A DNA stretch of 64,000 nucleotides. It comes from an uncultured Collinsella sp. GTDB taxonomy: Bacteria; Actinomycetota; Coriobacteriia; Coriobacteriales; Coriobacteriaceae. The notes beneath the pieces were generated by a model, which was not told the origin of the DNA, ran no database searches, and saw only the letters and a program-made list of their open reading frames with translations. Below, piece after piece: positions 3,680-26,349 of this stretch. Each line of letters begins with the position of its first letter. The first letter of the stretch is position 1. The position numbers were made by a program, and so were the translations under genes. The DNA lies in NCBI GenBank assembly GCA_902492755.1, contig CABUNB010000002.1, forward strand, positions 13,774 through 77,773, given 5' to 3'.

Positions 3680-3873
3680 GAGCGCCTCCTGCGTCGTGAA
3701 AAGACTTTCATTTCTGACAGCTCTATATTCGCACAAATACGCGTGTATGTGCGTGCTTCTGCGTGTATTACCGCTAAATGGTCAAAATTCAGCAGCAGAC
3801 GGAGCATATACAAGCATAGTCACGCAATCCTACGCACGCAACTACGCACAAGCACGCACCACCTGATCCCTTG

Positions 3874-3948
3874 GAGACGGAGGAAAACGGATCATCTCTT
3901 ACGCGGAAAGCTGTGATGATCCGTTAGGGACGGAGGAAAACGGATCAG
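3874..3948 (+). repeat. Two copies of the 22-mer GGGACGGAGGAAAACGGATCAG (dispersed motif family)
   Basis: Copies at 3874-3895 (GAGACGGAGGAAAACGGATCAT) and 3927-3948. The second is the loop and 3' arm of a 9-bp hairpin TGATCCGTT/AACGGATCA. Reverse-complement copies lie at 57479-57500 and, degenerate, at 53913-53931. Confidence 0.75.
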
Positions 3949-4057
3949 TTGAGGCGTCGCACCAGCCAGCAGTTGCCCTTTTAACCGTTGCCTCACCGAG
4001 TCCGCAACAACGCACAAGCTGACCGCCTGTCACGCCAGCCTTTCGTGCGCGCAACCA

Positions 4058-7349: not shown

Positions 7350-8180
7350 TTACTTCTTACGGCGACGAATGATGTGCTGGTTCGAGACCTTCTTCTTCTT
7401 GCGCGTACGAAGGCCCTTCGTCGGCTTACCCCAGGGGGTAACAGAGGGACGACCAGAGGTGTGGTTCTTGCCCTCGCCACCGCCGTGCGGGTGGTCGACA
7501 GGGTTCATGACGGTACCGCGGACGGTCGGGCGCACGTTCATGTGACGCTTACGGCCGGCCTTGCCGATGACGATGTTGGCGTGATCGGCGTTGCCGACCT
7601 CACCGACGGTGGCGCGGCAGGTAACGAGGATGCGGCGCATCTCGGAGGAAGGCATACGGACGATAGCGTACTTACCCTCCTTACCCATCAGCTGGCAGGA
7701 GTTACCGGCGGAACGGGCGATAGCGGCGCCCTTACCCGGCTGGAACTCGACAGCGTGGATGAGCGTACCGACGGGGATGTCGGCGAGGGGCAGAGCGTTG
7801 CCCGGCTTGATGTCGGCGTCAGAACCGGACATGATGGTCTGACCGACCTCGAGGCCCTTGGGGGCCAGGATGTAGCGCTTCTCACCGTCAGCGTAGTGCA
7901 GCAGAGCGATGCGAGCGGAACGGTTCGGATCGTACTCGATCGTGGCAACCTTGGCGGGCACGCCGTCCTTGTTGCGCTTGAAGTCGATCACGCGGTAACG
8001 ACGCTTCACGCCGCCGCCCTGGTGGCGGGTGGTGATGCGGCCGTTGTTGTTACGACCGGCCTTCTTGGGCAGGGGCTCGAGAAGAGACTTCTCGGGCTTG
8101 GTGCAGGTGATCTCGGAGAAATCGGAGATCGTCTGCCAACGCCTACCAGCGGAGGTCGGCTTAAGGTGCTTTACAGCCAT
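7350..8180 (-). CDS. rplB: 50S ribosomal protein L2 (uL2)
   Basis: ORF 7350..8255 trimmed to the ATG at 8180 ([14 protein letters not shown]). The conserved [13 protein letters not shown] motif is present. Confidence 0.95.
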
Positions 8181-9320: not shown

Positions 9321-9941
9321 TTAGGCCATACGGATGGCGACGAGACCATTCTTGGCACCCGGGACAGCGCCCTTGACCAAGATGAGGTTCTGCTCGGCAT
9401 CGATGCGGACAACGGAAAGGTTCTTGACGGTAACGCGCTCGTTACCCATGTGACCGGCCATCTTGACGCCCTTGAGGACGCGCGCAGGATAGGCGCACTG
9501 ACCGATAGAACCGGGGTGACGCTGGAAGTGAGAACCATGCGTCATAGGACCGCGGCGCTGACCCCAGCGCTTGATGCGACCCTGGAAGCCCTTACCCTTG
9601 GAGGTACCGATGACGTCGACCTTCTCGACATCAGCGAAATCAGCGACGGTGACGACCTCGCCGACCTTGTGCTCCTCGCCGTTCTCGACGCGAACCTCAC
9701 GAAGGAAGCGGACAGGCTCGACGCCAGCCTTGGCGAAGTGACCAGCCATGGGCTTGTTCACGTTCTTGGCCTTGATGTCGCCGAAACCGATCTGGACGGC
9801 GTCATAGCCGTCGGTTGCCTGAGTTTTAACCTGCGAGACAGCGCAGGGGCCAGCCTGGATGACCGTGACGGGAACGACGTTGTCGTCCTCGTCCCAAACC
9901 TGGGTCATGCCAATCTTGCGGCCGAGAATCATGCTGATCAA
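9321..9941 (-). CDS. rplC: 50S ribosomal protein L3 (uL3)
   Basis: 206 aa from the TTG at 9941; an alternative ATG lies at 9932. [13 protein letters not shown] and FQGRIKRWG motifs are present. Confidence 0.93.
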
Positions 9942-10124
9942 GATATGATCCCAACTCTCGCGTGGTCTTGGGACAATGCGTACACCACCGAGCGTACGCC
10001 CCTAGAGGACCACTACTTACACGACGTGCTCCCCAGCCTTGTATTTCGCCCGGACTACCTGACAACCCTATTAAGCAGGCATTTTGTCCAGCCAGAATAC
10101 TCCCCTGGTTTCACACAGCTGTTT

Positions 10125-10153
10125 AGTATACACGGCTGCGGGCGTATCCATCG
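10125..10153 (-). promoter_or_regulatory. Candidate promoter of the rplC operon (-10 TATACT, weak -35)
   Basis: The minus strand reads ..CGATGG-N17-TATACT. The region shares a GGATACGCCCG block with the rpsL upstream region. It would give a leader of about 175 nt. Confidence 0.3.
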
Positions 10154-10202
10154 AGATTCATATTTCACTCACATTGTTTACGCAGGTAAAGTGCGTGGAT
10201 GG

Positions 10203-10353
10203 CTCCTGGGCACGGCGGAGGGCCGGAGAAATATATTAAGGTCCCTGCTCTACAGTCCTGCGCAAGACGGAGAGCACATTAAGTGCTCTCCTTTGCGTGC
10301 GGAACTCGCGATGACCTTAATATATTTCTCCGGCCCTCCGCCGTGCTCGGGAG
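10203..10353. repeat. Long quasi-palindrome A: 41-bp arms around a conserved asymmetric core (family A/B/C)
   Basis: Arms 10203-10243/10313-10353 pair at 39/41 Watson-Crick positions plus two G-T pairs. Core 10244-10312 reads CTGCTCTACAGTCCTG..GGAGAGCAC-ATTAA-GTGCTCTCC..CGTGCGGAACTCGCGA. Confidence 0.85.
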
Positions 10354-10390
10354 ACGACACGTTGATGTCTGCTTAACTCTGCTCGCTCAG

Positions 10391-11017
10391 CTAATTACTT
10401 TGTTGAGGATCGATGATTTGCTGCAAGATGAACTTGGATTGGGGCGCGTCGCCTTCTTCTCCCGACTTTGCCTCATCAAAATCGAAGATCATGATGGCGC
10501 AGTTGGGGAGTTTTGTTGGGAGCTCGAAGCCCTCTGGGGCTGCAGCCTTGATGAATTGGCGGCTGGCGCTTCCATGGCTTACTGCTAGGAGGGTTTCGAT
10601 GCCCCCGGCGCCCATGAGATTGGTGAGGGTGCCTACCATGCGCTCCTGCAGGGCATGGCTTCCTTCTCCGCCAAATGGGATCAGGTCCTCGCCGGGGTCC
10701 CAGACGTCGGTGGGTAGGGCGTCGTGGGGGCCCTCTTCGAAGGTGCCGTAGCAGCGCTCGATAATGCCTTCGCAGGGCTCAACGTCAGCGTCCGGGCCAA
10801 AGAGTTCGGTTGCGACGAGCTGAGCTGTGTCCATGGCTCGGCCTAAGGGCGAAGAGACCACTTTGTCGGGAACGACGTTGTGGGCTTTGAGCCACGCGGC
10901 TGCCATCCCGGCTTGCTGACGGCCCAGGTCGGTCAGCGGTGAATCGCAGCGGCCCTGGACCAGCTTTTTGACGTTGAACTCCGTCTGACCGTGGCGGAGT
11001 AGATACAGCTTCTTCAT
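10391..11017 (-). CDS. Histidine phosphatase (phosphoglycerate mutase-like) family protein
   Basis: 208 aa with the N-terminal catalytic motif LLRHGQTEFN and a later SHG motif. Confidence 0.85.
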   Translation of the reverse strand: MKKLYLLRHGQTEFNVKKLVQGRCDSPLTDLGRQQAGMAAAWLKAHNVVPDKVVSSPLGRAMDTAQLVATELFGPDADVEPCEGIIERCYGTFEEGPHDALPTDVWDPGEDLIPFGGEGSHALQERMVGTLTNLMGAGGIETLLAVSHGSASRQFIKAAAPEGFELPTKLPNCAIMIFDFDEAKSGEEGDAPQSKFILQQIIDPQQSN

Positions 11018-11056
11018 GCTCTCCCCTTCTACACCAGTTGCTTTATCGGCGCGGCC

Positions 11057-12211
11057 CTACTCGTGGGTATGGCCGACATAGTCCTCGTCGATCGTAATCT
11101 TGGCAATCGACTTGGGATATTCCGATTCGACCCGTTGTGCCAGCGTGTGCTTTAGATCCTCGGCGCTCATCGCCAAATCCGAGGGTCGCACGCAGTCAAA
11201 AATCACATTGGTGTGCGTGGGGCCCGGTACGCAACGCAAGTCGTGGATCGAGAGGCGGCTATCAATCTCTTGAGCCATAGCGTTGATGCGCAGACGCATG
11301 CTCGCCACCTTTGGATCGTCGGTCACGATGGGATCGTAATGGAGCGTGACGATCATGCCGTCTTCGACCCTAAACGACTGCTCGATGTTATCGAGCGTGT
11401 CGTGACTTTCCAGCGGGCTGGCCTCAGCCGCCATCTCGGCGTGGGCACTTGCGAACTTTCTGCCTGGGCCGTAGTCGTGAACCATAAGGTCGTGGACGCC
11501 CAAAACGCCGGGGTAGCTCATGATCTTGTCTCGGATATGTTTGACCAGCTTGGGATCGGGCGCCTGGCCCAAAAGCGGGCTCACCGTATCCTGGATGAGC
11601 TCAAAACCGCTCCAGCCGATATAGGCGCCAACGGCAAGGCCGACCCATGCGTCAAGATTGATATGCGTCACCTGGGAAACAATCGCGCACGCCAGCACGG
11701 CGCCCGTGGCTAGGACATCGTTTTTGGAATCCTGAGCGGTCGCATGCAACGTCTCGGACTCAATGCGGTCACCGAGCTTTTGGTTGAGGGCCGCCATCCA
11801 CAGCTTTACAACCATCGAAAGTGCCAGGACTGCCACCAGGGCAAGCGAGAACTCGACAGGCTCCGGGTTGACGATACGCTCCACCGAGGACTTCACCAGT
11901 TCGATGCCAATAAGCAGCACGAGCGCCGCCACAACCAGACCCGAGAGATACTCGTAGCGGCCATGGCCGTAAGGATGCTCGGGATCCGCCGGCTTGCTCG
12001 CCAGCTTAAAGCCCAGCACGCTCACGATATTCGAGCTGGCATCGGACAGGTTGTTCATGGCATCCGCCACAATCGAAACCGATCCCGACAGCACACCAAT
12101 TGCGCCCTTCGCAGCACAAAGCGCAACATTAGCGAGAATACACACCATGCCCGTCAACGTGCCCACGCGCGCACGGTCGCCCTGCGCGCGCTTAACAATC
12201 CACTCGACCAT
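11057..12211 (-). CDS. Cation diffusion facilitator (CDF) family metal efflux transporter
   Basis: 384 aa. Six predicted TM segments are followed by a cytoplasmic domain. Sequence patterns (ADAMNNLSDA, HPYGHGRYE) are typical of CDF proteins. Confidence 0.8.
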   Translation of the reverse strand: MVEWIVKRAQGDRARVGTLTGMVCILANVALCAAKGAIGVLSGSVSIVADAMNNLSDASSNIVSVLGFKLASKPADPEHPYGHGRYEYLSGLVVAALVLLIGIELVKSSVERIVNPEPVEFSLALVAVLALSMVVKLWMAALNQKLGDRIESETLHATAQDSKNDVLATGAVLACAIVSQVTHINLDAWVGLAVGAYIGWSGFELIQDTVSPLLGQAPDPKLVKHIRDKIMSYPGVLGVHDLMVHDYGPGRKFASAHAEMAAEASPLESHDTLDNIEQSFRVEDGMIVTLHYDPIVTDDPKVASMRLRINAMAQEIDSRLSIHDLRCVPGPTHTNVIFDCVRPSDLAMSAEDLKHTLAQRVESEYPKSIAKITIDEDYVGHTHE

Positions 12212-12287
12212 CTACATCCGCCCCCACGGTACTGCCTATATATCTATTGCTCAAACGGATTGTAGTGTAGCCACTTTGTCCTTCAGA

Positions 12288-12323
12288 TACAAAAAGGCCG
12301 CAACCCACACGGGCCACGGCCTT
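12288..12323 (-). terminator. Rho-independent terminator after the PTS EIIC gene
   Basis: Stem AAGGCCG/CGGCCTT with an inner CCC/GGG pairing, followed on the minus strand by TTTTTGT. Confidence 0.6.
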
Positions 12324-12361
12324 GGAATATGACAAAGGAATCGTCCTTTTGTCACACAGGT

Positions 12362-13600
12362 TTATGCGCTTGCTTCAGCAGCGCTCGCCACTGTTTCGGG
12401 CGAATCGGCTTCGTCTTCTGCCACCTGCCCCTTCGTCGGTACCACGCCAAAGCAGTAGCTCAGCGCCGCAGACACCGCAAATGCCACACCGCCGGCAGCG
12501 CAGCACCACAGCAGGTTCGAGATGCCGCCCGTGGCAAAGCCAATGACCATGAGGACATTCGTCATGCCGATGGTATAGGCCGTAACGTGGCCCACGGCCG
12601 CAACAAGGCCTCCAACGGCGCCGCCAATGGCCATGCACGTCAGGCACCTGCCATATTTAAAGCCGCAACCGTACAGCGCCGGCTCGCTTACGCCGCCAAG
12701 AACACCCGAGATTGAATAGCCCAGCATGAGCGCCTTCTCGTCCTTATCCGCAACGCGGAGCGACGCGCCAAAAGGCATGCCCCAAACGGCGAACGTTGCC
12801 ATCGTCGCGGCGATCAGGATGCACGAATCCGTTCCCACACTCATAAACTGCGCATAGGCGAGCGATAGGACAACGTTGCTGACGCCGGCGATCTTAAGGA
12901 ACTCCCAGCCCGCAGCAAGCCCCATGAGCGTGAGCAGCGACACGATGCCACCGGAATTGCCAAGCATAAACATAAGCTGGCCCAACAGCATGCCCAGATA
13001 GCTACCCGCCGGCGCCGTAATGCACAGCGAAACCGGAACCATGACAAGCATGGTTGCAAACGGAACGAACGAAAACGCCACGGCCTTAGGGATAACGCGC
13101 TGAAAGAAACACTCCACTCGCCATAGCACGGGCACCGAGATGAGAACCGGAATAACAGTCGTCGTGTAATCGTTGACCGGCGCGGGAAGCAGACCATACA
13201 CGGAAGTCATCGCTGCCCCCGTCGTCGATGCGGCATCGACGAGCTTAAGCAGGTCGGGCGCAATCAATACGCCGCCCAACATCATGCCCAACTGCTCCGA
13301 GCAACCGAGCTGGCGGGCGGCCGCCCAACCAAGATAAATGGGCAAAAAGTAGTAGCCGGCGTTGTAGAGCCAACTGTAGAACAGGCGATAGATTTCGGAA
13401 TCGGCAGACCACAGCCCCAGCATGCCTTCGCCCATAATGACGGCGACGGTGCGGAACAACGCCGCGCAAACAATAAAGAGCAGCGCCGACATCATGCTTT
13501 TGGACAGATAGTCCACCACGGCCATGGCGTTTGATGAAACCGTCGTTGTAAACGAGGTGTTAGAACCTTGTGACATGGAACGCCTTTCCCAATGTGACAT
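12362..13600 (-). CDS. PTS sugar transporter, EIIC-only component (glucose/beta-glucoside superfamily-like)
   Basis: 412 aa polytopic membrane protein whose composition and motifs resemble PTS EIIC. No EIIB or EIIA domain is present. An alternative start lies at 13576. Confidence 0.6.
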   Translation of the reverse strand: MSHWERRSMSQGSNTSFTTTVSSNAMAVVDYLSKSMMSALLFIVCAALFRTVAVIMGEGMLGLWSADSEIYRLFYSWLYNAGYYFLPIYLGWAAARQLGCSEQLGMMLGGVLIAPDLLKLVDAASTTGAAMTSVYGLLPAPVNDYTTTVIPVLISVPVLWRVECFFQRVIPKAVAFSFVPFATMLVMVPVSLCITAPAGSYLGMLLGQLMFMLGNSGGIVSLLTLMGLAAGWEFLKIAGVSNVVLSLAYAQFMSVGTDSCILIAATMATFAVWGMPFGASLRVADKDEKALMLGYSISGVLGGVSEPALYGCGFKYGRCLTCMAIGGAVGGLVAAVGHVTAYTIGMTNVLMVIGFATGGISNLLWCCAAGGVAFAVSAALSYCFGVVPTKGQVAEDEADSPETVASAAEASA

Positions 13601-13616
13601 GCGGGCTGACCCTTTG

Positions 13617-15341
13617 TCACATCGTGCGGTAATGACCGATTGCGCGGTACTTTTCGTAGCGGAGGTTTGTGAGGGTCACGTCGTCGAGCTGCCCAAGCGT
13701 ATCGAAGGCGCCGAATGCCGAGGACATGACCGCACCGGCGATCTCCTCATGCGACAGGCCCTTATCGTCAACAATGCCGTCGATGATGCCGAGCGCCAGT
13801 AGATCGGGGGCCGTGAGCTTCAGCGCCTCGGCGGCCTCATTCGCGCGCTCGGTATCCTTCCACAGGATCGACGCACAGGCCTCGGGACTTACGGCCGAAT
13901 AGGCCGAACTCGAGAGCATCAGGATGCGGTCGGCCACGGACAACGCCAGCGCGCCACCAGAGCCGCCCTCGCCTGTCACCACCGAGACAATCGGCGTCTT
14001 AAGGCCGCTCATCTCCATGAGATTCTGGGCAATCGCCTCGCCCTGGCCGCGCTCCTCGGCACCGATGCCGCAAAACGCACCCGAAGTATCGACCAGGCAC
14101 AGAACCGGTCGGCCAAACTTTTCGGCCTGGCGCATAAGGCGACGCGCTTTGCGGTAACCCTCGGGATGCGCCATGCCAAAGTTGCGGCGCATGCGCTCTT
14201 TGGTCGTGGTGCCGCGCTCGATGGCGATAACCGTCACGGGACGTCCGTCTTTCCAGCCAATGCCAGCCACCACAGCGGCGTCGTCGCCAAAGTAACGGTC
14301 GCCGTGCAGCTGCACAAATCCATCCAAGCCCAGCAAGATCATCTCGCCCGCCGTGGCACGATCTGCCGAGCGGGTCTGCTTGACAATCTCGATCGCGGTT
14401 TTTGGTACCGCCGAGCGCTTAAACAAGTGTCCCAGCTTTTTGCCGCGGCGACCCGCATGCACGATCTCATGCGGTGCCCCCAGGCCGGGCGCGTGCCCTT
14501 CGTGCAGCGCCAGCAGCTCGCCTACCGTGAGCGCAATCTCGCCACGCGGAACAACGGCATCGCAAAAGCCGTGCTCCAGCAAAAACTCGGAGCGCTGGAA
14601 TCCCTTGGGCAGGCGCTTGTGCATGTTCTGCTCGATCACGCGCGGGCCGGCAAATGCCGTCAGGGCATCGGGTTCGGCCAGGATAATGTCGCCCTCCATG
14701 GCAAAGCTCGCGGTTACGCCTCCGGTCGTGGGGTCGGTGAGCACCGTGATATACAGGCCGCCCGCCTCGCTGTGGCGCCTAACCGCCGCAGAAATCTTGG
14801 CCATCTGCATGAGCGATGTCACGCCCTCTTGCATGCGCGCACCGCCCGAAACGGTAAAGCCGACAACTGGCAATCCCAGTTCGGTCGCACGCTCAAATGT
14901 GCGACAGATCTTCTCACCCACCACGGAGCCCATCGAGCCCATCATAAAGTTGGCGTCCATAAAGAAGAGCGCCGTATCGCATCCGCAGATTTTGCCCCTG
15001 CCGCACACAACGGCATCGCGTTCGCCCGAACGCTCGCCCGCGCTCTTAAGCTTGTCGGCATAGCCGGGAAACGAGAGGAAGTCCTCCGACGCCAGACTGG
15101 CATCCCATTCCTCAAACGTGCCCTCGTCAACCGTCATGCGCATGCGCGCGCGACCGCTCACGCGAAAGTGTTTGCCGCAACGAGGGCAGACCTCGAGGTT
15201 GTCGTGCAGGCGTGCCTCATCGATCACACGGCGGCACTCCGGGCACTTGATAAACACGTGGCGCGCGGGAAACTCGGCGCACGACTCGGTCATCGGCCCC
15301 TCGAGGACGTTGACCGTCTTCGCTTTTCTATTCATCAGCAT
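13617..15341 (-). CDS. accD/accA: Acetyl-CoA carboxylase carboxyltransferase, fused beta-alpha subunits (AccD-AccA)
   Basis: 574 aa. The N-terminal half has the AccD zinc ribbon (CPECRRV...CPRCGKHFRV). The C-terminal half is AccA-like (LCLVDTSGAFCGIGAEERGQGEAIA). Confidence 0.9.
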   Translation of the reverse strand: MLMNRKAKTVNVLEGPMTESCAEFPARHVFIKCPECRRVIDEARLHDNLEVCPRCGKHFRVSGRARMRMTVDEGTFEEWDASLASEDFLSFPGYADKLKSAGERSGERDAVVCGRGKICGCDTALFFMDANFMMGSMGSVVGEKICRTFERATELGLPVVGFTVSGGARMQEGVTSLMQMAKISAAVRRHSEAGGLYITVLTDPTTGGVTASFAMEGDIILAEPDALTAFAGPRVIEQNMHKRLPKGFQRSEFLLEHGFCDAVVPRGEIALTVGELLALHEGHAPGLGAPHEIVHAGRRGKKLGHLFKRSAVPKTAIEIVKQTRSADRATAGEMILLGLDGFVQLHGDRYFGDDAAVVAGIGWKDGRPVTVIAIERGTTTKERMRRNFGMAHPEGYRKARRLMRQAEKFGRPVLCLVDTSGAFCGIGAEERGQGEAIAQNLMEMSGLKTPIVSVVTGEGGSGGALALSVADRILMLSSSAYSAVSPEACASILWKDTERANEAAEALKLTAPDLLALGIIDGIVDDKGLSHEEIAGAVMSSAFGAFDTLGQLDDVTLTNLRYEKYRAIGHYRTM

Positions 15342-16671
15342 AGAGATGCCCCATCAGATCGGTGTGGTACATACCCGACAAGAACTCGTCGTTTGCCAGC
15401 ACGTCGAGCTGAAGCTCGCTGTTTTCGCTCACGCCCTCAATCACGAGCTCGCCCAGGGCCGAGCGCATCTTGCGAATGGCGCCGTCACGCGTGGGCGCAC
15501 ACACGATGAGCTTGCCGAGCATGGAGTCGTAGTACGGCGGAACTTTCGCACCGGTAAACATGGCGGAATCCCAGCGCACGCGCGGGCCACCCGGCACACG
15601 CAACGCGGTGACCGTTCCGCACGACGGCAGAAAGTCCGGCGTTTCGGCATTGATGCGGCACTCCATGGCGTGGTTGCGCACCGGCATGTCCTCCTGCTCA
15701 AAGGGCAGAGGCTGGCCGGCTGCCACGCGCAGCTGCCACTTGACCAAGTCGGTATCGGTTACAAACTCTGTAACCGGATGCTCCACCTGCAAGCGCGTGT
15801 TCATTTCCATAAAGTAGAAATTGCCGTCGTCCGAATACAGGAACTCAATGGTGCCAGCGCCCTCATAGCCAACGGCACGAGCCAGGTCGCGCGCGGCCTT
15901 GTGCATGCGCGCGCGAATATCATCGCGTCCGTCGAGGCACGGCGCGGGACTCTCCTCAATCAGCTTTTGGTTGCGGCGCTGCACCGAGCACTCGCGCTCG
16001 CCGAGCGAAAACACATGGCCCTGCTTATCGGCCATAATCTGCACCTCAACGTGATGCGCCGGCGCGACGAACTTCTCCATGTAGCACTCGCCGTCGCCAA
16101 AAACGACCTCGCCCTCGGCACGCGCCTCGATGAACGCCTTTGCCGCATCTTCCACGCGCTCGACCTTGCGAATGCCGCGGCCGCCACCGCCTGCGCGCGC
16201 CTTGATGAGCACGGGGCAGCCGATGCGCTCAGCCTCGGCCGTCGCCTCCTTGGGGCTTTTGAGCAAATCGCAGCCCGGAACGATGGGCACGCCCGCCGCG
16301 GCAGCCGTTCGGCGTGCGGCGTCCTTGTCGCCCATGCTGTCGATGACCTCGGCCGAGGGACCAACAAACGCCAGACCGTACTTGTCGCAGTCGCGCACGA
16401 AGCTCGCCTTCTCGGAGAAAAAGCCATAGCCGGGATGAATTGCCTTAGCTCCCGACTTCACGGCACAGGTGAGCACGGCATCGTCGTTGAGGTAGCTCTC
16501 GGCAAGACGCGGGCCGCCGATGCAATACGCCTCGTCGGCAAGCTGCACGTGCAGCGCGTCCGCATCGGCCGTGGAATAAACGGCGACGGTCTTGATGCCC
16601 ATATCGCGGCACGCGCGGATAACACGGACCGCGACTTCGCCGCGGTTGGCGATGAGCACTTTGTCGAACAT
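15328..16671 (-). CDS. accC: Acetyl-CoA carboxylase biotin carboxylase subunit
   Basis: ORF 15328..16890 trimmed to the ATG at 16671 (MFDKVLIANRGEVAVRVIRAC), with AAGGAAGG upstream. The ATP-grasp region is conserved. Confidence 0.93.
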   Translation of the reverse strand: MFDKVLIANRGEVAVRVIRACRDMGIKTVAVYSTADADALHVQLADEAYCIGGPRLAESYLNDDAVLTCAVKSGAKAIHPGYGFFSEKASFVRDCDKYGLAFVGPSAEVIDSMGDKDAARRTAAAAGVPIVPGCDLLKSPKEATAEAERIGCPVLIKARAGGGGRGIRKVERVEDAAKAFIEARAEGEVVFGDGECYMEKFVAPAHHVEVQIMADKQGHVFSLGERECSVQRRNQKLIEESPAPCLDGRDDIRARMHKAARDLARAVGYEGAGTIEFLYSDDGNFYFMEMNTRLQVEHPVTEFVTDTDLVKWQLRVAAGQPLPFEQEDMPVRNHAMECRINAETPDFLPSCGTVTALRVPGGPRVRWDSAMFTGAKVPPYYDSMLGKLIVCAPTRDGAIRKMRSALGELVIEGVSENSELQLDVLANDEFLSGMYHTDLMGHLYADE

Positions 16672-16681
16672 GAAGCCTTCC

Positions 16682-17113
16682 TTACCTTTCGTGCATGAGT
16701 GCAAAAGACATATCGGCGCGGCAGCAAACCTCACCGTTGACGCTCGCGGTACCCGTCGCAAAGCGGAACGGCCCGCGCGCACGCGTGATGGAGCACACCA
16801 GATCCACCGTGTCGCCCGGGCGCACCGGACGCTTAAAGCGCACCTTGTCCAGACTCGTGTAGAACGGCGTCGCGCCGCGCGCCTCCTCATCGCCCATCAG
16901 CAGCACGCAGCAGTTCTGGGCGAGCATCTCGCACTGAATCACGCCGGGGACGACCGGGTTTCCCGGAAAATGCCCCTGCAAAAAGTACTCGTCGCCCGTA
17001 ATCGTGATCTTGCCGTGGGCCTCGTCGCCCACCAGCTCGGCTTCGCCGAGCAAAAGCATCGGCTCGCGATGCGGCAACAGCTTCTTGAGCTCTTCTTTGT
17101 TCATGGATATCAC
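16682..17113 (-). CDS. fabZ: 3-hydroxyacyl-ACP dehydratase FabZ
   Basis: 143 aa with LPHREPMLLL and GHFPGNPVVPGV motifs. GTG start at 17113, or an ATG at 17104 with AGGTGA upstream. Confidence 0.92.
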   Translation of the reverse strand: MISMNKEELKKLLPHREPMLLLGEAELVGDEAHGKITITGDEYFLQGHFPGNPVVPGVIQCEMLAQNCCVLLMGDEEARGATPFYTSLDKVRFKRPVRPGDTVDLVCSITRARGPFRFATGTASVNGEVCCRADMSFALMHER

Positions 17114-17587
17114 CTATCCGATCCTCATGAGGCAGCTGCCAAACTCCACGAGGTCGCCGTCGGCCACGCAGATCTCGAGCACCTCGCCGTCTGCCTCGGC
17201 CGTCACCTCGTTGAGAACCTTCATGGCCTCGATGATGCAGAGGGTCTCGCCGGCCTTGACCTTGGAGCCCACGTGCACAAACGGCTCGTCGCCCGGCGCC
17301 GGGGCAGCATAGAAAACGCCGACCATGGGGGCGGTCACCTCGGTGCCCTTGGGCTCCGACGCGGCGGCAGGTGCCTGCGCGGCGGGCTCCGGTGCGGCAG
17401 GCGCGACTGCGGGAGCTGCTACTGGAGCGGCCATGGCGCTCGGCATAGGCATGGGCACAGCAACCGGCTGCGCGGCGCTCGCGCGCTCAAGTTCGACCGC
17501 GGTGCCATCGGGCTCCTCAACGCGTACGCGCGTGAGTCCGCGGTCCTCCATAACATCGGCTATCTCGGCAAGTCTTTTGGAATCCAT
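17114..17587 (-). CDS. accB: Biotin carboxyl carrier protein of acetyl-CoA carboxylase
   Basis: 157 aa with an Ala/Pro-rich linker and the biotinylation motif IIEAMKVLNEV. Confidence 0.93.
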   Translation of the reverse strand: MDSKRLAEIADVMEDRGLTRVRVEEPDGTAVELERASAAQPVAVPMPMPSAMAAPVAAPAVAPAAPEPAAQAPAAASEPKGTEVTAPMVGVFYAAPAPGDEPFVHVGSKVKAGETLCIIEAMKVLNEVTAEADGEVLEICVADGDLVEFGSCLMRIG

Positions 17588-17590
17588 GCT

Positions 17591-18856
17591 CTAGCTCCTC
17601 GTATATCTACGCAGCGCGATGGCGGCGTTGTGCCCGCCAAAGCCCAGGTTGGTCGAAAGCGCCCAGGTAAGGTCGGCGCGAACCGCGCGATTGGGCGTGT
17701 AGTCAAGATCGCAGGCGGGATCGGGCGTATGGTAGTTAATGGTCGGCGGCACCACACCCTGCTCGAGCGCCATGGCGCAGACCATGACCTCAATGGCCCC
17801 CGTGGCACCGATCATGTGCCCCGTCATCGACTTGGTCGACGAGACATGTGCGGCGCGTGCCGCATCCTCGCCGAGCGCACGTTTAATGCCCGCCGTCTCG
17901 GACGAATCGTTGAGCTTGGTCGAGGTGCCGTGGGCATTGATGTAGAGGCCCTCGGAAGGCTTGACGTCGCCCTCGGCCACCGCCAGCGATATCGCACGGG
18001 CAATGCCGGCAGCCTCGGGATCGGGGCTCGTAATGTGATAGGCATCATCGGTGTTGCCGTAGCCCACGACCTCGGCATAAATGTGCGCACCGCGCGCCTG
18101 CGCATGTTCCATGCTCTCGAGTACCAGCACGCAGGCGCCCTCGCCCATCACAAAGCCGTCGCGATCTGCATCGAACGGGCGGCAAGCCGTCGCAGGATCG
18201 GGGTTGGTGGTCAATGCGCGGCAGGACGTAAAGCCCGCAACGGCATCGGGGATAATGGCCGCCTCGGCGCCGCCCGCGAGGATCGCGTCGGCATAGCCGT
18301 GCTTGATGGCGCGGAACGCCTCGCCCACCGCATGGGCCGAGGTTGCGCACGCGGTCACCACGGGCAGGGTCGGGCCCTTCGCCTTGTGGCGGATTGCGAT
18401 ATTGCCCGAAGCCATATTGGGGATCATCATCGCGATCATATAGGGCGATGCGCGGCGAGGCCCTCGATCGGCGATCGTGTGGACGTTGTCGACGAGCGTC
18501 TGCATGCCGCCCACGCCCGACCCCACGTAGACGCCCAGGCGCTCGCGATCGATGGAGCCTTCGACATCAAAGCCCGCATCGTGCATTGCCTCGTCCGAAG
18601 CCGCCATCGCAAACTGAACGCAGGGGTCGAGATGCTTGGCGTCACGCTTGCCAAAGTACTCGTTGCCGTCAAAGCCCTTGACCTCGGCCGCCACCTTAAC
18701 GGCGAACGCATCGGTATCGAAGTGCGTGATCGGGCCGATGCCGCATGTACCGGCGCACATGGCCGCCCAGGTGGCAAGCGCGGTGTTGCCGAGCGGCGAT
18801 ACGGCACCGATGCCGGTGATTGCAACTCTCTGTTCCATCATGGTCTCCTCATCCAA
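17591..18856 (-). CDS. fabF: Beta-ketoacyl-ACP synthase II
   Basis: 421 aa with the active-site region VVTACATSAHA and a C-terminal NLGFGGHNA motif. The likelier start is the ATG at 18838, 6 nt after GAGGAG. Confidence 0.93.
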   Translation of the reverse strand: MDEETMMEQRVAITGIGAVSPLGNTALATWAAMCAGTCGIGPITHFDTDAFAVKVAAEVKGFDGNEYFGKRDAKHLDPCVQFAMAASDEAMHDAGFDVEGSIDRERLGVYVGSGVGGMQTLVDNVHTIADRGPRRASPYMIAMMIPNMASGNIAIRHKAKGPTLPVVTACATSAHAVGEAFRAIKHGYADAILAGGAEAAIIPDAVAGFTSCRALTTNPDPATACRPFDADRDGFVMGEGACVLVLESMEHAQARGAHIYAEVVGYGNTDDAYHITSPDPEAAGIARAISLAVAEGDVKPSEGLYINAHGTSTKLNDSSETAGIKRALGEDAARAAHVSSTKSMTGHMIGATGAIEVMVCAMALEQGVVPPTINYHTPDPACDLDYTPNRAVRADLTWALSTNLGFGGHNAAIALRRYTRS

Positions 18857-18877
18857 GCCGTTCTTCGGCCCTAGTTT

Positions 18878-19651
18878 CTACATCGCCATTCCGCCGTCAA
18901 CGCGTACGACCTCGCCCGCAATGTAGGCAGCCGCATCGCTCGCCAAAAAGCGCACCACGCCGGCCACTTCCTCGGGGCGCGCCATGCGCTTTAGGGGAAT
19001 CTGCTCCTCGGTTGCCGCGCGAACCTTCTCCGAGAGCTTTGCCGTCATATCCGTCTCGACAAACCCGGGGGCGACCGCGTTCACTCGTACGCCGCGGGGC
19101 GCAAGCTCGCGCGCCACCGCCTTGGTCAGGCCAATTACGCCCGCCTTGGAGGCAGCGTAGTTGGCTTGCCCGGCATTGCCCATCAGGCCCACGACCGAGC
19201 TCATGTTGACGACGCAACCGCCGCGCTGGCGCATAAAGGTCTTGGTGAGCGCGCGCGTCATATTGAATGTTCCCTTGAGATTGACATCGAGCACGCGGTC
19301 GAAGGCATCGTCGCCCATACGCATGAGCAGGCCATCGCGCGTGATGCCGGCGTTGTTGACGAGCGCCCAAATGGAGCCAAAGTCGTTGAGGACCGCCTCC
19401 ACGCACGTGTTGACGGCGGCGGGGTCGGCCACGTCGCATTGATATGCGCGTGCCGCGGCGCCAGCCGCCTCGCAGGCCTCGCACGTCTCGCGAGCCGCAT
19501 CGACGCTACCGGCATAGACGACGGCGATATCAAAGCCGTCCTCCGCCAGACCGACTGCGCAGGCGCGGCCGATACCGCGTGAGCCGCCCGTGACCAGCGC
19601 CACGCGACGTGAGTCGTTGCGCTCGAGCGTGCCGTTATTCAAGTTGCCCAT
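18878..19651 (-). CDS. fabG: 3-oxoacyl-ACP reductase
   Basis: 257 aa SDR with VTGGSRGIG, NNAGI and YAASKAG motifs, located in the FAS cluster. Confidence 0.92.
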   Translation of the reverse strand: MGNLNNGTLERNDSRRVALVTGGSRGIGRACAVGLAEDGFDIAVVYAGSVDAARETCEACEAAGAAARAYQCDVADPAAVNTCVEAVLNDFGSIWALVNNAGITRDGLLMRMGDDAFDRVLDVNLKGTFNMTRALTKTFMRQRGGCVVNMSSVVGLMGNAGQANYAASKAGVIGLTKAVARELAPRGVRVNAVAPGFVETDMTAKLSEKVRAATEEQIPLKRMARPEEVAGVVRFLASDAAAYIAGEVVRVDGGMAM

Positions 19652-19681
19652 GTCATTCCTTTCGGGTTACAGCCCTGTGGA

Positions 19682-20608
19682 CTATGCGAGCTCGTTGGCA
19701 ATAGCTGCGACCTGCTCGGCCGTTTCGCACGAATACACGCGAACGTCGCTCAGCGTACGCTTGACCAGGCCCGACAGCGTTTTGCCAGGGCCGACCTCAA
19801 TAAACGTGTCGATGCCCTGATCCTGCAGAGTATGCAGCGTGTCGACCCAGCGAACGGCATGGCTCACCTGGTTGCCCAGGATATCCGATGCCGCTCGCGG
19901 GTCCGCCGGATAGGGTGCCGCCGTCATGTTTGCCATGACCGGAATCAGCAGCGGAGACGGCGCGTGGCCGTCTTGGATATACGTCGCCAGCCCCTCAGTC
20001 GCCTCGGCCATATAGGGGCTATGAAATGCACCCGACACCGCGACTTTCATAGCGCGGCCGCCAGCCTCTTTTACTAGGACGTCGAGCTCCTGCAACGCCT
20101 CGGGCGCTCCGGCCACAACCGTCTGCTGGGGACTGTTGTAGTTGACCGGCCAGCAGTCCTCGCCGGCCTGTTTTGCCAAACCCTCGACCTGCGCCGCATC
20201 GAGTTTGATGACGGCTCGCATGCCACCGGGGTGACGCTCGGCCGCCGTGGCCATCAATGCCGCGCGCTCACACACGAGCTCAAAACCCGCTCGCGTATCG
20301 AATGCCCCCGCAAAGGTGAGTGCTGCGACCTCGCCCAGCGAGAATCCCGCACAGGCGGCAGGCGCCACGCCGCGCTCGCGCAGGGCGGCAGCCGCTGCCA
20401 GGTCGTGAACGAACACGCAAGGCTGCGTGTTCTCGGTCTGCGAGAGCTCCTCTTTCGAGGCGCTCCGGCACTGCTTGCTCGTCCCCGGGCGCACCTCGTC
20501 GGCAATGGCGAACACCTCGGCAGCCGCCGGCGATGCCTCGATCAGGTCGACGCCCATCGCGGGGTGCTGGGCACCCTGACCGGCAAATAGAAACGCTACG
20601 CTACCCAT
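19682..20608 (-). CDS. fabD: Malonyl-CoA:ACP transacylase
   Basis: ORF 19682..20710 trimmed to the ATG at 20608 (MGSVAFLFAGQGAQ). The GFSLGE active-site motif is present. It overlaps the fabK stop by 13 nt. Confidence 0.92.
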   Translation of the reverse strand: MGSVAFLFAGQGAQHPAMGVDLIEASPAAAEVFAIADEVRPGTSKQCRSASKEELSQTENTQPCVFVHDLAAAAALRERGVAPAACAGFSLGEVAALTFAGAFDTRAGFELVCERAALMATAAERHPGGMRAVIKLDAAQVEGLAKQAGEDCWPVNYNSPQQTVVAGAPEALQELDVLVKEAGGRAMKVAVSGAFHSPYMAEATEGLATYIQDGHAPSPLLIPVMANMTAAPYPADPRAASDILGNQVSHAVRWVDTLHTLQDQGIDTFIEVGPGKTLSGLVKRTLSDVRVYSCETAEQVAAIANELA

Positions 20609-21540
20609 GCGGACGCACCCTTCAGGACATGCTCGGCGCCATCGACCAGATCGTCGACGATTTCGCGTGCGCTCTGGCGTTCGTTGACCATGCCGGCAAT
20701 CTGTCCGCACAAATACGAACCCTCTTCGTAATTTCCGTCCTTTGCGGCTTTACGAAGCGCGCCCGTGCCCATGGCCCCGAGCTCCTCGGGGCTTGCGCCC
20801 GCCGCCTCGTTCTTGGCATACGCGTTGGTGAAGGGGCTCTTGAGGGCGCGAACCGGATGTCCCGTCGAGCGACCGGTCGCACGCGTTGACGTATCGCCTG
20901 CCTTGAGCACCAGCTCTTTGTACTGTTCGGATACGGTGCACTCGTTTGCGACCAGAAAGCGTGTTCCCACCTGGACGCCGGTGGCACCGAGCATAAAGGC
21001 CGCTGCCACGCCGCGACCATCGGCGATACCGCCGGCTGCCACAACGGGGATATCGACCGCGTCGACAACCTGCGGGACGAGCGCCATCGTCGATGTCTCG
21101 CCAATATGTCCACCCGATTCGGTGCCTTCGGCAACCACAGCGGTGGCCCCGCGACGCGCCACGAGACGCGCCAGCGCCACAGAGGCAACAACCGGGATGA
21201 CCTTGATGCCCGCTTCGTTCCAAGCCTTCATGTACTTGGTGGGATTGCCGGCACCCGTCACGACGACCGGCACCTGCTCGTCGATCACAACCTGTGCGAC
21301 CTCGTCGGCAAACGGGCTCATAAGCATGACGTTCACGCCAAAGGGCTTATCCGTCTTGGCGCGCAACTCGTGAATCTGATCGCGCAACCAGTTGGCGTCG
21401 GCATTCATGGCCGCGATGATTCCCAACCCGCCGGCCTCGGACACGGCCGATGCCAGCGAGGCATCGGCAATCCAGGCCATGCCGCCCTGGAACACGGGCT
21501 TTTCGATGCCAAGCAGCCCACAGAGAGGAGTCTTGAGCAT
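20596..21540 (-). CDS. fabK: Enoyl-ACP reductase II, FMN-dependent (FabK, nitronate monooxygenase fold)
   Basis: 314 aa starting MLKTPLCGLLGIEKPVFQGGMAWIA. It sits between acpP and fabD, as in streptococcal FAS clusters. Confidence 0.88.
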   Translation of the reverse strand: MLKTPLCGLLGIEKPVFQGGMAWIADASLASAVSEAGGLGIIAAMNADANWLRDQIHELRAKTDKPFGVNVMLMSPFADEVAQVVIDEQVPVVVTGAGNPTKYMKAWNEAGIKVIPVVASVALARLVARRGATAVVAEGTESGGHIGETSTMALVPQVVDAVDIPVVAAGGIADGRGVAAAFMLGATGVQVGTRFLVANECTVSEQYKELVLKAGDTSTRATGRSTGHPVRALKSPFTNAYAKNEAAGASPEELGAMGTGALRKAAKDGNYEEGSYLCGQIAGMVNERQSAREIVDDLVDGAEHVLKGASAWVA

Positions 21541-21542
21541 CT

Positions 21543-21779
21543 CTACTTCTCCAATGCCGCCTCGACCGTATCGGCGAACTCGCCGACCGTCTTGGGGTTC
21601 TCCTCGGTATCGAGCTGGATGCCAAACTCGTCCTCGACGGCGACGAGGATCTCGACGGTGCCTAGGCTGTCGAGGCCAATCTCCTCGAGTGTGGACTCGG
21701 GCTTCATCTCGACGTCGTCAAGGCCAGCGGTCTCGCGGATAACGTCGCAAACGCGCTCGAAGGTCTTCTGATCTGCCAT
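21543..21779 (-). CDS. acpP: Acyl carrier protein
   Basis: 78 aa, acidic, with the phosphopantetheine attachment motif GLDSLGTVE. Confidence 0.93.
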   Translation of the reverse strand: MADQKTFERVCDVIRETAGLDDVEMKPESTLEEIGLDSLGTVEILVAVEDEFGIQLDTEENPKTVGEFADTVEAALEK

Positions 21780-21831
21780 GGTAGTTCTCCTTTGTTTGTG
21801 CCCTAGGGGCGTTTTTATTTCCTATGTGCGG

Positions 21832-22791
21832 CTACTTCCAGCGAAGTAGATAGCCACCTATATCCAGACCGGCGCCAAATCCAACGAGGGCGATGGTGTC
21901 GCCCGCGTGCAGCGCGCCGGTATTTGCCAGTCGATCGAGAGCAAGCGGAATGCAGGCGCTCGAGATGTTGCCGGTTTCACGCAACGTTCGGACCACGCGC
22001 TCGTCTGGCACGCCGAGACGCTTGACCGCCTGACTCAGGATTCGCTCGTTAGCCTGATGGAATACAAAATGATCGATGTCTTCGACCGAAATGCCCGCAT
22101 CGCTCGCAAGCGTATGGACCGTGTCGCAGATGGCGTTGACGCCGAACTTGAACACGCGGCGGCCATTCATGGACAGCACGCTCTCCCGATCGTCCACCGT
22201 CTTAAATGGCGAGGTACCCGCTAAGCCAGGAACACGCAGTGTCTCAACATCGGGATTGGTTGCAAGCTCGACGGCAAGGGGATTCACCCCGCCGGCCCCA
22301 ATAACTGCAGCACCCGCGCCATCGCCAAAGAGCACGCACGTGGCACGGTCGGTCCAGTCAAGCGCACGCGTCATCTGCTCGGCGGCAACGACAAGCACAT
22401 GCTTGGCTCGTCCTCGGGCGATATAGCCCTCGGCGACATCGAGCGCAAAAACAAAGCCAGCACAGGCGGCCGAGACATCGAAGGCGGGACACGTCGCGCC
22501 CAGATGCTCGGCAACGGCACATGCCTCGGCGGGAACAAGGTGGTCACCCGTTGTCGTCGAGCAGACGATCAAATCCAGCTGGCTCGAGTCGATTCCGGAT
22601 ACCTGGAGCGCCCGCTCGCTCGCTGCTACGGCAAGGTCGTCGAGTGACTCGATGGTGCAGACGTGGCGGCTCTTGATGCCTGTGCGGGTAAAAATCCACT
22701 CATCCGAGGTATCGAGGAACTCGGACAGCTCGTCATTGGAAACACTGCGCTTAGGAAGCGCCGAGCCTGTTCCAAGAATCGTGAAACCCAT
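21832..22791 (-). CDS. fabH: Beta-ketoacyl-ACP synthase III
   Basis: ORF 21832..22848 trimmed to the ATG at 22791, preceded by AAGGAGG. The active-site Cys context is SAACAGFVFAL, and a FHQAN motif is present. Confidence 0.92.
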   Translation of the reverse strand: MGFTILGTGSALPKRSVSNDELSEFLDTSDEWIFTRTGIKSRHVCTIESLDDLAVAASERALQVSGIDSSQLDLIVCSTTTGDHLVPAEACAVAEHLGATCPAFDVSAACAGFVFALDVAEGYIARGRAKHVLVVAAEQMTRALDWTDRATCVLFGDGAGAAVIGAGGVNPLAVELATNPDVETLRVPGLAGTSPFKTVDDRESVLSMNGRRVFKFGVNAICDTVHTLASDAGISVEDIDHFVFHQANERILSQAVKRLGVPDERVVRTLRETGNISSACIPLALDRLANTGALHAGDTIALVGFGAGLDIGGYLLRWK

Positions 22792-22807
22792 CACTAACCT
22801 CCTTTGA

Positions 22808-22874
22808 GTTGTTGACGTGTTTACATCGACCAAGAGAGGATAACGCATTTCAGTCGTTGTTGACGTGTTAACAT
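22808..22874. promoter_or_regulatory. Two copies of a 19-mer containing a 16-bp quasi-palindrome (candidate FAS operator) in the fabH-birA divergent region
   Basis: GTTGTTGACGTGTTTACAT at 22808-22826 and GTTGTTGACGTGTTAACAT at 22856-22874, 48 bp apart. Half-sites read TGTTGAC-GT-GTTAACA. Confidence 0.5.
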
Positions 22875-22967
22875 TAAATTGTTCAAATGCGACAAAGGCT
22901 TCACATTGTGTCTATCTCTCGACACCATTACGCGATTGCCTTATTACCTTAGGAGGTAGCAGCTGTT

Positions 22968-23744
22968 ATGGATTCTCGTTTAACGGTGGTCGACGTAACC
23001 GGATCGACCAACGATGACCTGCTCGAAGCAGGAAAACAGGGAGCGCCGCACGGCACAGGACTTGCCGCCCGGGCTCAGACAGCAGGACGCGGCCGGCGCG
23101 GCCACAAGTGGGATTCAACCGCCGGCAACCTATTGCTTTCGATTGTCCTGCGTCCATGCGTTAATCCTGCAAAGTACTCTGGTCTTGCCGCCGTCAGCGG
23201 CCTAGCAGTGCTCGAAGCGCTCGAAAAGCAGGGCCTTGCAAGCGAAATAGCCCTCAAGTGGCCCAACGATCTTGTCGCGCGAGGATGCAAGCTCGGCGGC
23301 ATTCTGGTCGAGGCCGCACGCGATAACGAAGGCAAACCTTTTGCCGTCTGCGGTATTGGCGTCAATGTGAACTATGTGCCTTCGGAGGTTCCCGATGGCG
23401 GCCTGCCGGCAATCGGTCTCTCGGACCTCAACGAGAATGTTCCCGCCGTCGATGTGCTACTCAAGGAGGTCTATCACACCGTCGTAAACGCTGTGGACGC
23501 GTGGGCAGAGCGTCTCAACGCCATGGAAGAAGACGCCGGACCGCTCGCGCCCGTCCACGGCGAATATATCGGTCATCTCAATTGGATTGGGGATCACGTT
23601 ATCGCCCGTTCCCCCGCTGGGGACGAGCTGGCACGTGGAATCTTTCAAACGGTCGATGACTTTGGTCGCGCGTGCATCGAGACAGAAGACGACTTGCGAT
23701 CCTTCCATTTTGAGGAGGCATCGCTGCGCCCCATGGGTAAATAA
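22968..23744 (+). CDS. birA: Biotin-[acetyl-CoA-carboxylase] ligase, class I (no N-terminal HTH)
   Basis: 258 aa with the GRGRRGHKW motif. AGGAGG lies 9 nt upstream of the ATG. Confidence 0.9.
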   Translation: MDSRLTVVDVTGSTNDDLLEAGKQGAPHGTGLAARAQTAGRGRRGHKWDSTAGNLLLSIVLRPCVNPAKYSGLAAVSGLAVLEALEKQGLASEIALKWPNDLVARGCKLGGILVEAARDNEGKPFAVCGIGVNVNYVPSEVPDGGLPAIGLSDLNENVPAVDVLLKEVYHTVVNAVDAWAERLNAMEEDAGPLAPVHGEYIGHLNWIGDHVIARSPAGDELARGIFQTVDDFGRACIETEDDLRSFHFEEASLRPMGK

Positions 23745-23800
23745 GACGCCATAGCCACCCATTCGGCCGCATTATCCGGGCCCCCAAGGCCACCGTTCAA

Positions 23801-23842
23801 AACAAAAGGGCCCCGCTACCGTAACGGCAGCGGGGCCCTTTA
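23801..23842. terminator. Bidirectional terminator between birA and rpsJ
   Basis: GC-rich stem GGGCCCCGCT.CCG/CGG.AGCGGGGCCC (23808-23838), flanked by AACAAAA on the left and TTTAA on the right. Confidence 0.75.
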
Positions 23843-23860
23843 AGCTATGAGCGATATCGC

Positions 23861-24169
23861 TTAGAGCTTGATGTCGATGTCGACGCCAGCGGGGAGGTCG
23901 AGACGCATGAGCGAATCAACGGTGCCCGAGGTGGGGTCGAGGATGTCGATGAGACGCTTGTGGGTGCGCATCTCGAACTGCTCACGGGAGTCCTTGTTCA
24001 CGTGCGGCGAGCGGATAACCGTGTACAGGTTGCGCTCGGTGGGCAGGGGGACAGGACCGGAAACGCGAGCGCCGGTCTTCTGAGCGGTCTCGACGATGAG
24101 CTTCGCGGACTGATCGACGACCTCGTGATCATAGCCCTTGAGGCGAATGCGGATCTTCTGGGTAGCCAA
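23861..24169 (-). CDS. rpsJ: 30S ribosomal protein S10 (uS10)
   Basis: 102 aa starting [15 protein letters not shown]. It lies 61 nt downstream of fusA and is detached from rplC. Confidence 0.96.
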
Positions 24170-24230
24170 CTTAAACCTCCAAAGAGTGCGAGAGATGTTC
24201 TCGCAGGATTACGTAACAGGGAGCTCGAAC

Positions 24231-26330: not shown

Positions 26331-26349
26331 GTTAGTTCCTTACCTTAAC

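Follow-up and report, generated by a model that had tools for sequence, protein, structure and literature searches.

Three long hairpin-forming elements, here called A, B, and C, in a 64-kb stretch of an uncultured Collinsella genome (contig CABUNB010000002.1; the whole stretch, at its full length of 64,000 nucleotides, is referred to as the window) belong, with high confidence, to a dispersed structured intergenic repeat that has so far been found almost only in Collinsella. Each copy of this repeat is an imperfect palindrome of ~105–165 bp (200 bp in C), in which arms of 18–53 bp enclose a conserved, oriented centre of ~65 nt that carries two unpaired motifs (..CAGKTCCTG and GTGCGGAAY) together with a 9-bp apical hairpin. 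With moderate confidence, we read it as a REP/ERIC/Correia-like repeat that acts as a hairpin at the transcript level; the symmetry of its arms appears to be maintained at the DNA level, and its cores appear to pass between copies.

The hairpin elements and their family

Element A is a complete hairpin element at positions 10203–10353 of the window, read on the + strand, with arms at 10203–10243 and 10313–10353, a core at 10244–10312, and a score of 111.6 bits under the covariance model of the family. An inverted-repeat search of the window gave its arms as 41 nt with 95% complementarity, and its core consists of a 5′ module CTGCTCTACAGTCCTG, an apical hairpin GGAGAGCAC-ATTAA-GTGCTCTCC, and a 3′ module CGTGCGGAACTCGCGA. 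The stop codon of a histidine phosphatase gene (10391–11017, − strand) is 37 nt from the element, and rplC lies ~270 nt downstream. Element B (27480–27620, + strand; arms 27480–27516 and 27584–27620, core 27517–27583; 115.4 bits) is likewise complete, and in the same search its arms were complementary at 37/37 nt (100%); measured from its left end, the predicted −35 box of rpsL is 84 nt and the rpsL start codon 206 nt away. Element C (approximately 40294–40493, + strand; 66.6 bits) is a ~200-nt long hairpin in which an outer helix, pairing ~40294–40322 with 40465–40493, encloses an internal loop and then inner arms (40339–40371 and 40415–40447; 33 nt, 97% complementary) around a truncated core (40372–40414) that retains the apical hairpin CGAAGGCCAC-ATTAA-GTGGCCTTCG plus GGCTCGTGCGGAATCTACGG. 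It stands between an aminotransferase gene (stop at 40543, ~50 nt away) and rplJ, whose predicted −35 box (40304–40299) it overlaps.

The motif CACATTAAGTG-N10-CGTGCGGAA matches the window three times, always on the + strand, against 0.01 matches expected by chance, and CTGCTCTACAGTCCTG occurs in A and B, not in C. Under the family covariance model, A, B, and C score 112, 115, and 67 bits on the + strand and 43–48 bits on the − strand; no further copy was found in the window, the remaining matches being generic hairpins with similar scores on both strands. Compared with shuffled controls, single-strand folds gave z = −13 for the region of A and z = −17 for the whole region of C, which forms one hairpin. 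The original prediction of three strong hairpins sharing an oriented asymmetric core is thus confirmed by repeat search, motif search, and folds. Its statement that C lacks the 5′ module is also borne out, the cause being a 20-nt deletion in the window copy that the other copies of this locus examined do not have: all 10 further strains whose L10 protein is the same have CGCTCGGTCA(A/G)GTCCTGG at the site of the module, and their intergenic region measures 505 nt versus 484 nt in the window.

The family was collected by scanning representative bacterial genomes with an exact 20-base core motif; the collected genome stretches carry labels of the form L plus a number (e.g., L035). At least 120 stretches match the motif, nearly all of them from Collinsella or from metagenome-assembled genomes of Coriobacteriaceae or the gut, and the stretches listed contain, together with the window, at least 138 copies in at least 23 flank-similarity clusters (loci), the largest of which is a merger of several loci. 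The element occurs at 13 places in one 900-kb C. aerofaciens replicon, which is also the sole match in the plasmid collection; the phage collection yielded no match, and three IMG/VR matches are the host loci c10 and c3. Many copies lie at contig ends. Across loci, the neighbours include the genes for PNPase, RNase J, ValRS, Pol I, GatB, MetK, SdaA, PtsI, GroEL, and LeuRS as well as a tRNA operon; two copies face each other between the PNPase and RNase J genes (the pnp/rnj locus), and the ValRS gene has one copy at each end. No description of the element was found in the literature searched, and the core is absent from the examined part of the supplement to a human-microbiome survey of structured RNAs (PMC8040213).

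The covariance model and the alignment were built from 84 distinct copies, which RNAalifold folds into a single hairpin. From the outside inward, this comprises the arms, a short helix TGC/GCG, an internal loop holding ..CAGKTCCTG and GTGCGGAAY, an invariant TCC/GGA helix, a variable 5-bp helix, and the 9-bp apical hairpin. Compensatory two-sided changes are seen in 28 of 35 pairs, and standard pairs fill 97.3% of the alignment cells, versus 68% after shuffling and 37–48% with the partners slid. The covariation score is 0.753 versus 0.193 and was reached by none of 500 shuffles, and the alignment holds 77 pair types versus 83.5 in shuffles. Large-scale compensatory variation of the arms, which had been proposed from the three window copies, therefore extends to the family.

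The arms differ in composition, the 5′ arm being G/T-rich, the 3′ arm C/A-rich, and the inner arm A/T-rich (TTAAGTTTG / CAAACTTAA and variants). This bias is strand-symmetric: on both strands the 5′ arm has more G (0.39) than C (0.27), in 53 of 61 arm types. The four G-T arm positions of the window had been described correctly (two G-T and no A-C in A, and likewise in C), and in A the left arm departs at both positions, by point changes, from the perfect 46-nt arm of L035. Their reading as a sign of a plus-strand RNA fails, since G-T and A-C mismatches are equally rare in the family (17 versus 17 cells among ~1,600 arm cells, ~1% each), with nearly all pairing being Watson-Crick; counted as unique mismatch events by gene context, G-T versus A-C gives 24 v 20 and 14 v 12. 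The only strand-specific signals are two pairs of the centre, namely a T.G pair at columns 25/92, which 54 of 83 copies keep on the + strand and which alternates with C-G and T-A, and a second G.T pair, found in 34 copies of one core subtype. The + strand fold is more stable in 87 of 112 copies, observations that are not independent because the core is shared.

The CAC/GTG closure and the ATTAA loop, which had been taken as invariant, hold in the three window copies but not in relatives, where the apex reads GAC-ATTAA-GTC (L147/L148), ...TCC-ACTG-GAC... (L142/L143), or GCC-ACT-GGC (L048). Where the 5′ module has CTAC, other copies read CGGG, CGGA, or CGGT. Small-peptide coding was considered and rejected: the ATG of the − strand loop opens a 9-codon open reading frame in one core variant, and the frame is not conserved elsewhere. 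A 10-nt match between GGTCAGGTCC, the 5′ module of type C, and domain IV of signal recognition particle (SRP) RNA is confined to one subtype and was judged coincidental.

Arm turnover and probable exchange of cores

Within one locus, the arms can be unrelated between copies whose flanks match in full. L022 and L052 have flanks identical at 60 of 60 positions and arms without similarity. At locus B, strains with the same S12 protein carry three inner-arm alleles (ACAGGGG, CCGCTGT, and CTGCGGT), each mirrored in the opposite arm and each found with different core subtypes. At locus C, strains with the same L10 protein fall into classes I and I′, which are ~25% different, counting indels that are mirrored in the other arm, and a class II that is unalignable in every helix and keeps the internal loops. 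The adjacent genes are 90–94% identical, and membership of an arm class at locus C does not track that identity. Between different loci, no arms are shared; the one resemblance is a loose G-rich CCCGG..GGGCGG pattern.

Each locus contains two to four of the same ~8 core variants (three linker types combined with a few apical stems), always in compensated form. Such recurrence would be hard to reach by independent double mutations and suggests exchange between copies. Furthermore, hybrid copies that join, within the core, the left half of one allele to the right half of another are present in L007, L034, L045, L093, L094, L126, and L139; some of them may be chimeras of metagenome assembly, and those of L126 and L139 are on contigs of 1.3 and 2.3 Mb. 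Taken together, the sequences suggest that the arms, each copied onto the other, drift at approximately the neutral rate, and that old alleles are shuffled by homologous recombination through the conserved flanks and core.

Loci B and C show one constant orientation across the 18 other contigs that carry them, most of which are long. In one of the 138 copies (L025, at a contig start), the core is inverted relative to the rplJ-side flank, which may represent a rare arm-to-arm inversion or an assembly path through the palindrome. An inverton, i.e., a phase-variable segment, was rejected, with 0 of 18 strains inverted at loci B and C and the single L025 case at a contig start.

Presence also varies. 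L129 has no element B, and the related species L145 (neighbouring protein 83% identical) has no element C, with the operons intact in both, and L124 retains the left arm of B alone. At all three sites, the gap exceeds the size of the element. Truncated or decayed copies occur in L109, L114, and L124. Conversely, locus C is occupied in the more distant Collinsella sp. CAG:289 (L142/L143; neighbouring protein 76% identical) by an element whose arms differ and whose apical hairpin is GAAACGTCC-ACTG-GACGTTTC, which indicates that the element is old at this locus and that neither the ATTAA loop nor the CAC/GTG closure defines it.

A separate repeat family, GGAAACTGCRGCCCGGAAT...GGGATGCARTTTCC, was observed in the window at 53770–53890, in L109 at 7700–7800, and in L119. 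In L109, it takes the place of a hairpin element's 3′ part immediately after GCGGAA, apparently via the GCGGAA that both share.

Genomic position and competing explanations

At ~14 locus types, the left arm begins 6–52 nt (median ~15) past the stop codon of a same-strand gene, often with a convergent gene opposite. Most of these loci have a canonical terminator, consisting of a hairpin and a T tract, 40–140 nt to the right of the element, and a terminator scan of L158 confirmed the order stop codon, element, + strand terminator. With the terminator downstream, the element at such loci lies inside the 3′ untranslated region (3′ UTR) and is not itself the terminator. A further ~11 locus types, among them A, B, and C, have − strand genes on both sides, and the element is 37–260 nt past the stop of the upstream gene, often beyond the terminator of that gene. 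At A, B, C, and the tRNA operon it precedes the next promoter, and in four cases (valS, leuS, sdaA, and one more) it is 15–30 nt from the ribosome-binding site (RBS) or ATG of the next gene. In cluster 8, from other genomes, the copy abuts an UP-element-like region of the tRNA operon promoter. Overall, a + strand terminator is found within 250 nt on the right in 28 of 51 locus types and on the left in 4, and a loose GGTTGACTT-like motif to the right of the right arm is weakly enriched. A sigma-70 scan for outward or inward promoters adjoining either end of the element returned none above chance.

The favoured reading, a repeat that works as a transcript-level hairpin, combines two levels. At the DNA level, arm-to-arm copying by template switching or gene conversion would hold the arms as exact inverted copies that otherwise drift near the neutral rate, and copies would exchange or homogenise their cores. 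At the transcript level, the element would be read through in the 3′ UTR of its neighbour at about half of the loci and would lie in a 5′ UTR or between operons at the others, forming a very stable hairpin whenever transcribed. Such a hairpin would act by stopping 3′ exonucleases, by undergoing RNase III cleavage, or by hindering read-through, and each of these would insulate adjacent transcription units of strongly expressed genes, and the conserved asymmetric centre would serve as a putative recognition site of a factor that uses or propagates the element. That insulating or stabilising neighbouring mRNAs is its main role is a more tentative proposition than the overall reading, reaching at best a similar strength.

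Several observations weigh against this reading. Transcription of the element is itself deduced from its position, and at A, B, and C, which are upstream of promoters, an RNA would need read-through from the upstream gene. These three copies have no T tract and received no terminator-like call, so they are not canonical terminators, and the single locus of cluster 1 has divergent genes on its two sides. A purely structural role leaves the conserved ~40 nt of asymmetric centre and the kept T.G pair unexplained, and conservation of the anchor region is overstated by the use of an exact 20-base anchor for collection. With regard to propagation, neither a target-site duplication nor conserved termini were seen at the arm ends of ~50 locus types by inspection, and the lack of shared arms between loci means that recent whole-unit transposition is not seen. 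A tblastn query of the local IS200 TnpA against 1.08 Mb of sequence from loci with the element found two IS200 copies, neither flanked by the element; in the same sequence, no Y1 transposase adjoins any copy and no propagating enzyme was found.

Among the alternatives, the copies could instead be independently transcribed + strand hairpin RNAs (small RNAs or 3′ UTR-derived RNAs, possibly RNase III substrates), with a functional centre and a terminator 40–200 nt downstream. This would suit the oriented core (112–115 bits on the + strand versus 43–45 bits on the − strand for A and B), the greater stability of the + strand fold, and the two G.T-type pairs of the centre, of which the one at columns 25/92 alternates with C-G and T-A as expected of wobble on the + strand. 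It would equally suit the prevalence of + strand terminators on the right and, in particular, the one 22 nt past B, where there is no + strand gene to terminate. However, right-hand terminators often belong to the neighbouring gene, and no promoter was found on the left, where the flank is a coding end or an opposite-strand RBS or start codon; the sigma-70 result points the same way. Moreover, G-U pairs are not in excess over A-C in the arms, which is unusual under selection on a single-stranded RNA, and we regard such RNAs as unlikely.

To the same degree unlikely is an element that acts at the DNA level, as a hairpin or cruciform, a recombination site, or a binding site, with its centre bound by a recombinase, nuclease, or nucleoid protein and any RNA being incidental. 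The strictly Watson-Crick arms, with G-T mismatches as frequent as A-C mismatches and fewer pair types than in shuffles, argue for it, as do the indels mirrored in both arms, the G/T-rich 5′ arm on both strands, the hybrid alleles that switch inside the core, and the shuffling of the same core variants over all loci. Hybrids could nonetheless also arise from ordinary allelic recombination or metagenome assembly, and orientation at loci B and C is constant, the exception of L025 being perhaps an assembly artefact. The ~1.08 Mb of flanking sequence shows no recombinase or nuclease gene associated with the copies, and placement after stop codons and in UTRs suits a role at the transcript level better.

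A non-autonomous mobile element (MITE- or REPIN-like) without host function, tolerated in intergenic DNA and dependent on a transposase encoded elsewhere, appears slightly less probable again. Its multi-copy, strictly intergenic occurrence in mostly one genus, its absence from locus C in L145 and locus B in L129, and the decayed copies are in line with mobility, and these genomes contain IS200/IS605 Y1 transposases, which act on DNA hairpins. Nevertheless, the terminal repeats differ at every locus and hence are not a transposase recognition site, no target-site duplication accompanies them, and no arms are shared between loci. The apparently empty sites are larger indels and not precise excisions, the ends of IS200 are unlike the core, and occupation of the same locus in CAG:289 speaks for long residence.

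Somewhat more doubtful is the proposal of a new hairpin-based element whose centre is recognised by a dedicated putative factor and copied between loci, with arms that stay complementary through intramolecular copying and are otherwise free to turn over. It may take either of two versions, a non-transposase system of repeat propagation and homogenisation or a new RNase III-type class of hairpin RNAs in which double-stranded stems particular to each locus carry a common protein-binding apex.

A promoter-upstream control element of ribosomal-protein operons, e.g., a site for a regulator of ribosome synthesis, is very improbable: all three window copies do precede such operons, and elsewhere a copy abuts the tRNA operon promoter region, but only 3 of at least 23 loci are ribosomal-protein loci, most of the others being after housekeeping stop codons, between convergent genes, or 15–30 nt from a start codon, and the operons are intact where locus B (L129) or locus C (L145) is empty. 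The link with these operons, central to the original prediction, had been misjudged in scope because just 64 kb was visible, and it does not hold across loci that adjoin housekeeping genes, about half of them with the element just after a stop codon and often between convergent genes without a promoter. The predicted position relative to −35 boxes was accurate for the window (84 nt from that of rpsL for B, overlapping that of rplJ for C). Beyond the window, association with promoters fails, but the copies are not randomly scattered. Among the functions first proposed, an insulator, a hairpin RNA or RNase III substrate, and a mobile core may still apply, and a regulator of ribosome synthesis is unlikely.

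Collinsella is a common genus in the human intestine, and this repeat adjoins many of its core housekeeping genes and is absent from Rfam. It breaks short-read assemblies at the same places, can give rise to contigs that are hybrid or chimeric, and can pass for a regulatory RNA of the adjoining gene. It also offers a natural system for studying how palindrome symmetry is kept up and how sequence is exchanged between dispersed repeats. Should the hairpin insulate transcription units, it would contribute to the way in which this lineage organises expression of its most active genes.

Neighbouring features and comparison with known families

Past element B, 22 nt along its + strand, lies a terminator-like repeat (27643–27680, + strand) consisting of a hairpin ACCTGCC..ACAGGT followed by TTTATTTTGG. 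The same motif trails elements at the pnp/rnj locus in other genomes, and it may be part of the element. With 29463–29500, after rpoC, it forms an inverted 38-nt pair (ACCTGCCAAAAAGGxACAGGTTTATTTTGGTCGGTTTT) that brackets an ECF sigma / DUF4179 anti-sigma gene pair in the rpoC-rpsL spacer; strain L127 does not have this gene pair. A TGATCCGTTTTCCTCCGTCCCC-containing repeat occurs in both orientations, 53 kb apart, at 3864–3956 and 57471–57511, and also in the rpoC-rpsL spacer of L127. At 1412–1455 and 1789–1832, a hairpin repeat AACCACCACAA..TTGTGGTGGTT flanks three tandem hairpins (~1485–1700) with arms GTCTCGATCTGTAACAG / CTGTTACAGATCGAGAC.

The S10 operon is split in the window (9321–27274), with rpsL-rpsG-fusA-rpsJ (no tuf after fusA) and rplC-rplD-rplW separated by ~13.5 kb that holds birA, a fab/acc cluster for fatty-acid synthesis, and genes for a PTS EIIC, a CDF transporter, and the histidine phosphatase; this order is also annotated in C. 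aerofaciens TSDC17.2-1.1. In some strains, IS200/IS605 tnpA and IS30 insertions lie by rpsJ and rplL (L131 15716–16174 and 31615–32907; L140 2714–3172), indicating that these intergenic regions accept several kinds of insertion.

Searches of Rfam 15 at the gathering threshold gave no match in the window or in 18 loci, and permissive thresholds around A and B added only noise. The sub-threshold matches, to Metazoa_SRP (23 bits versus 70) and YrlA (15 versus 69), are, together with those to microRNA precursors, the noise generic to long hairpins. This agrees with the earlier statement that no known ribozyme core was recognised in the elements and that they are probably not part of the operon leaders; a leader was also rejected on the grounds that the positions of B and C are at the predicted −35 box or upstream of it and that the same core recurs at ≥23 loci and not at one operon. 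The Collinsella-1 RNA motif (RF01700) resembles the element in being a candidate non-coding element from C. aerofaciens and gut metagenomes, and identity with it had been raised as a possibility. The sequence and structure of its published seed alignment are unrelated, and its model matches neither the window nor the 18 loci, nor anything at E ≤ 10 around A and B. An IS200/IS605-derived element (PATE) was rejected as well, the IS200 ends in C. aerofaciens TSDC17.2-1.1 being unlike the core.

The intrinsic, including bidirectional, terminators of this genome share G+C-rich long stems and the same intergenic positions with the element. They differ in having a T tract and no shared centre, and separate canonical terminators adjoin the elements. 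At 44449–44521, a hairpin with a 28-bp stem and an apical mini-hairpin, followed by TTATTTTGG on the − strand, is the canonical terminator of an MFS transporter gene, showing that in this genome a very long stem is normal for a terminator.

MITEs are likewise small, non-coding, and multi-copy, with inverted-repeat arms and differences in presence between genomes, but they have conserved terminal inverted repeats that are transposase sites as well as target-site duplications, neither of which is found in the Collinsella element. ERIC (IRU) and Correia/NEMIS repeats resemble it as imperfect palindromes of 100–160 bp that are intergenic or in UTRs, co-transcribed, and folded into long hairpins. 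De Gregorio et al. are said to have reported ERIC and Correia hairpins as RNase III substrates or determinants of mRNA stability. In these repeats, however, the whole sequence including the arms is conserved, and Correia elements have TA target duplications and IHF sites, whereas in the Collinsella element the centre alone is conserved and no duplication is seen. REP/BIME sequences of enterobacteria and pseudomonads, with their RAYTs and REPINs, are also dispersed extragenic palindromes. They often follow stop codons or separate convergent genes where operons are well expressed, are found in either orientation, and fold into hairpins when transcripts read through them. Unlike the Collinsella element, with its stems of 18–53 bp that differ at each locus and its conserved ~65-nt asymmetric centre, REPs are 20–40 nt long and have a conserved stem and a conserved 5′ tetranucleotide. 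They are also accompanied by a RAYT gene, and none was found for the Collinsella element in the 1.08 Mb searched. The conservation pattern is thus inverted relative to REP, ERIC, Correia, and MITE repeats, and an architecture of a fixed asymmetric centre, hypervariable but matched arms, and shuffled cores sets the element apart from its nearest known repeat families.

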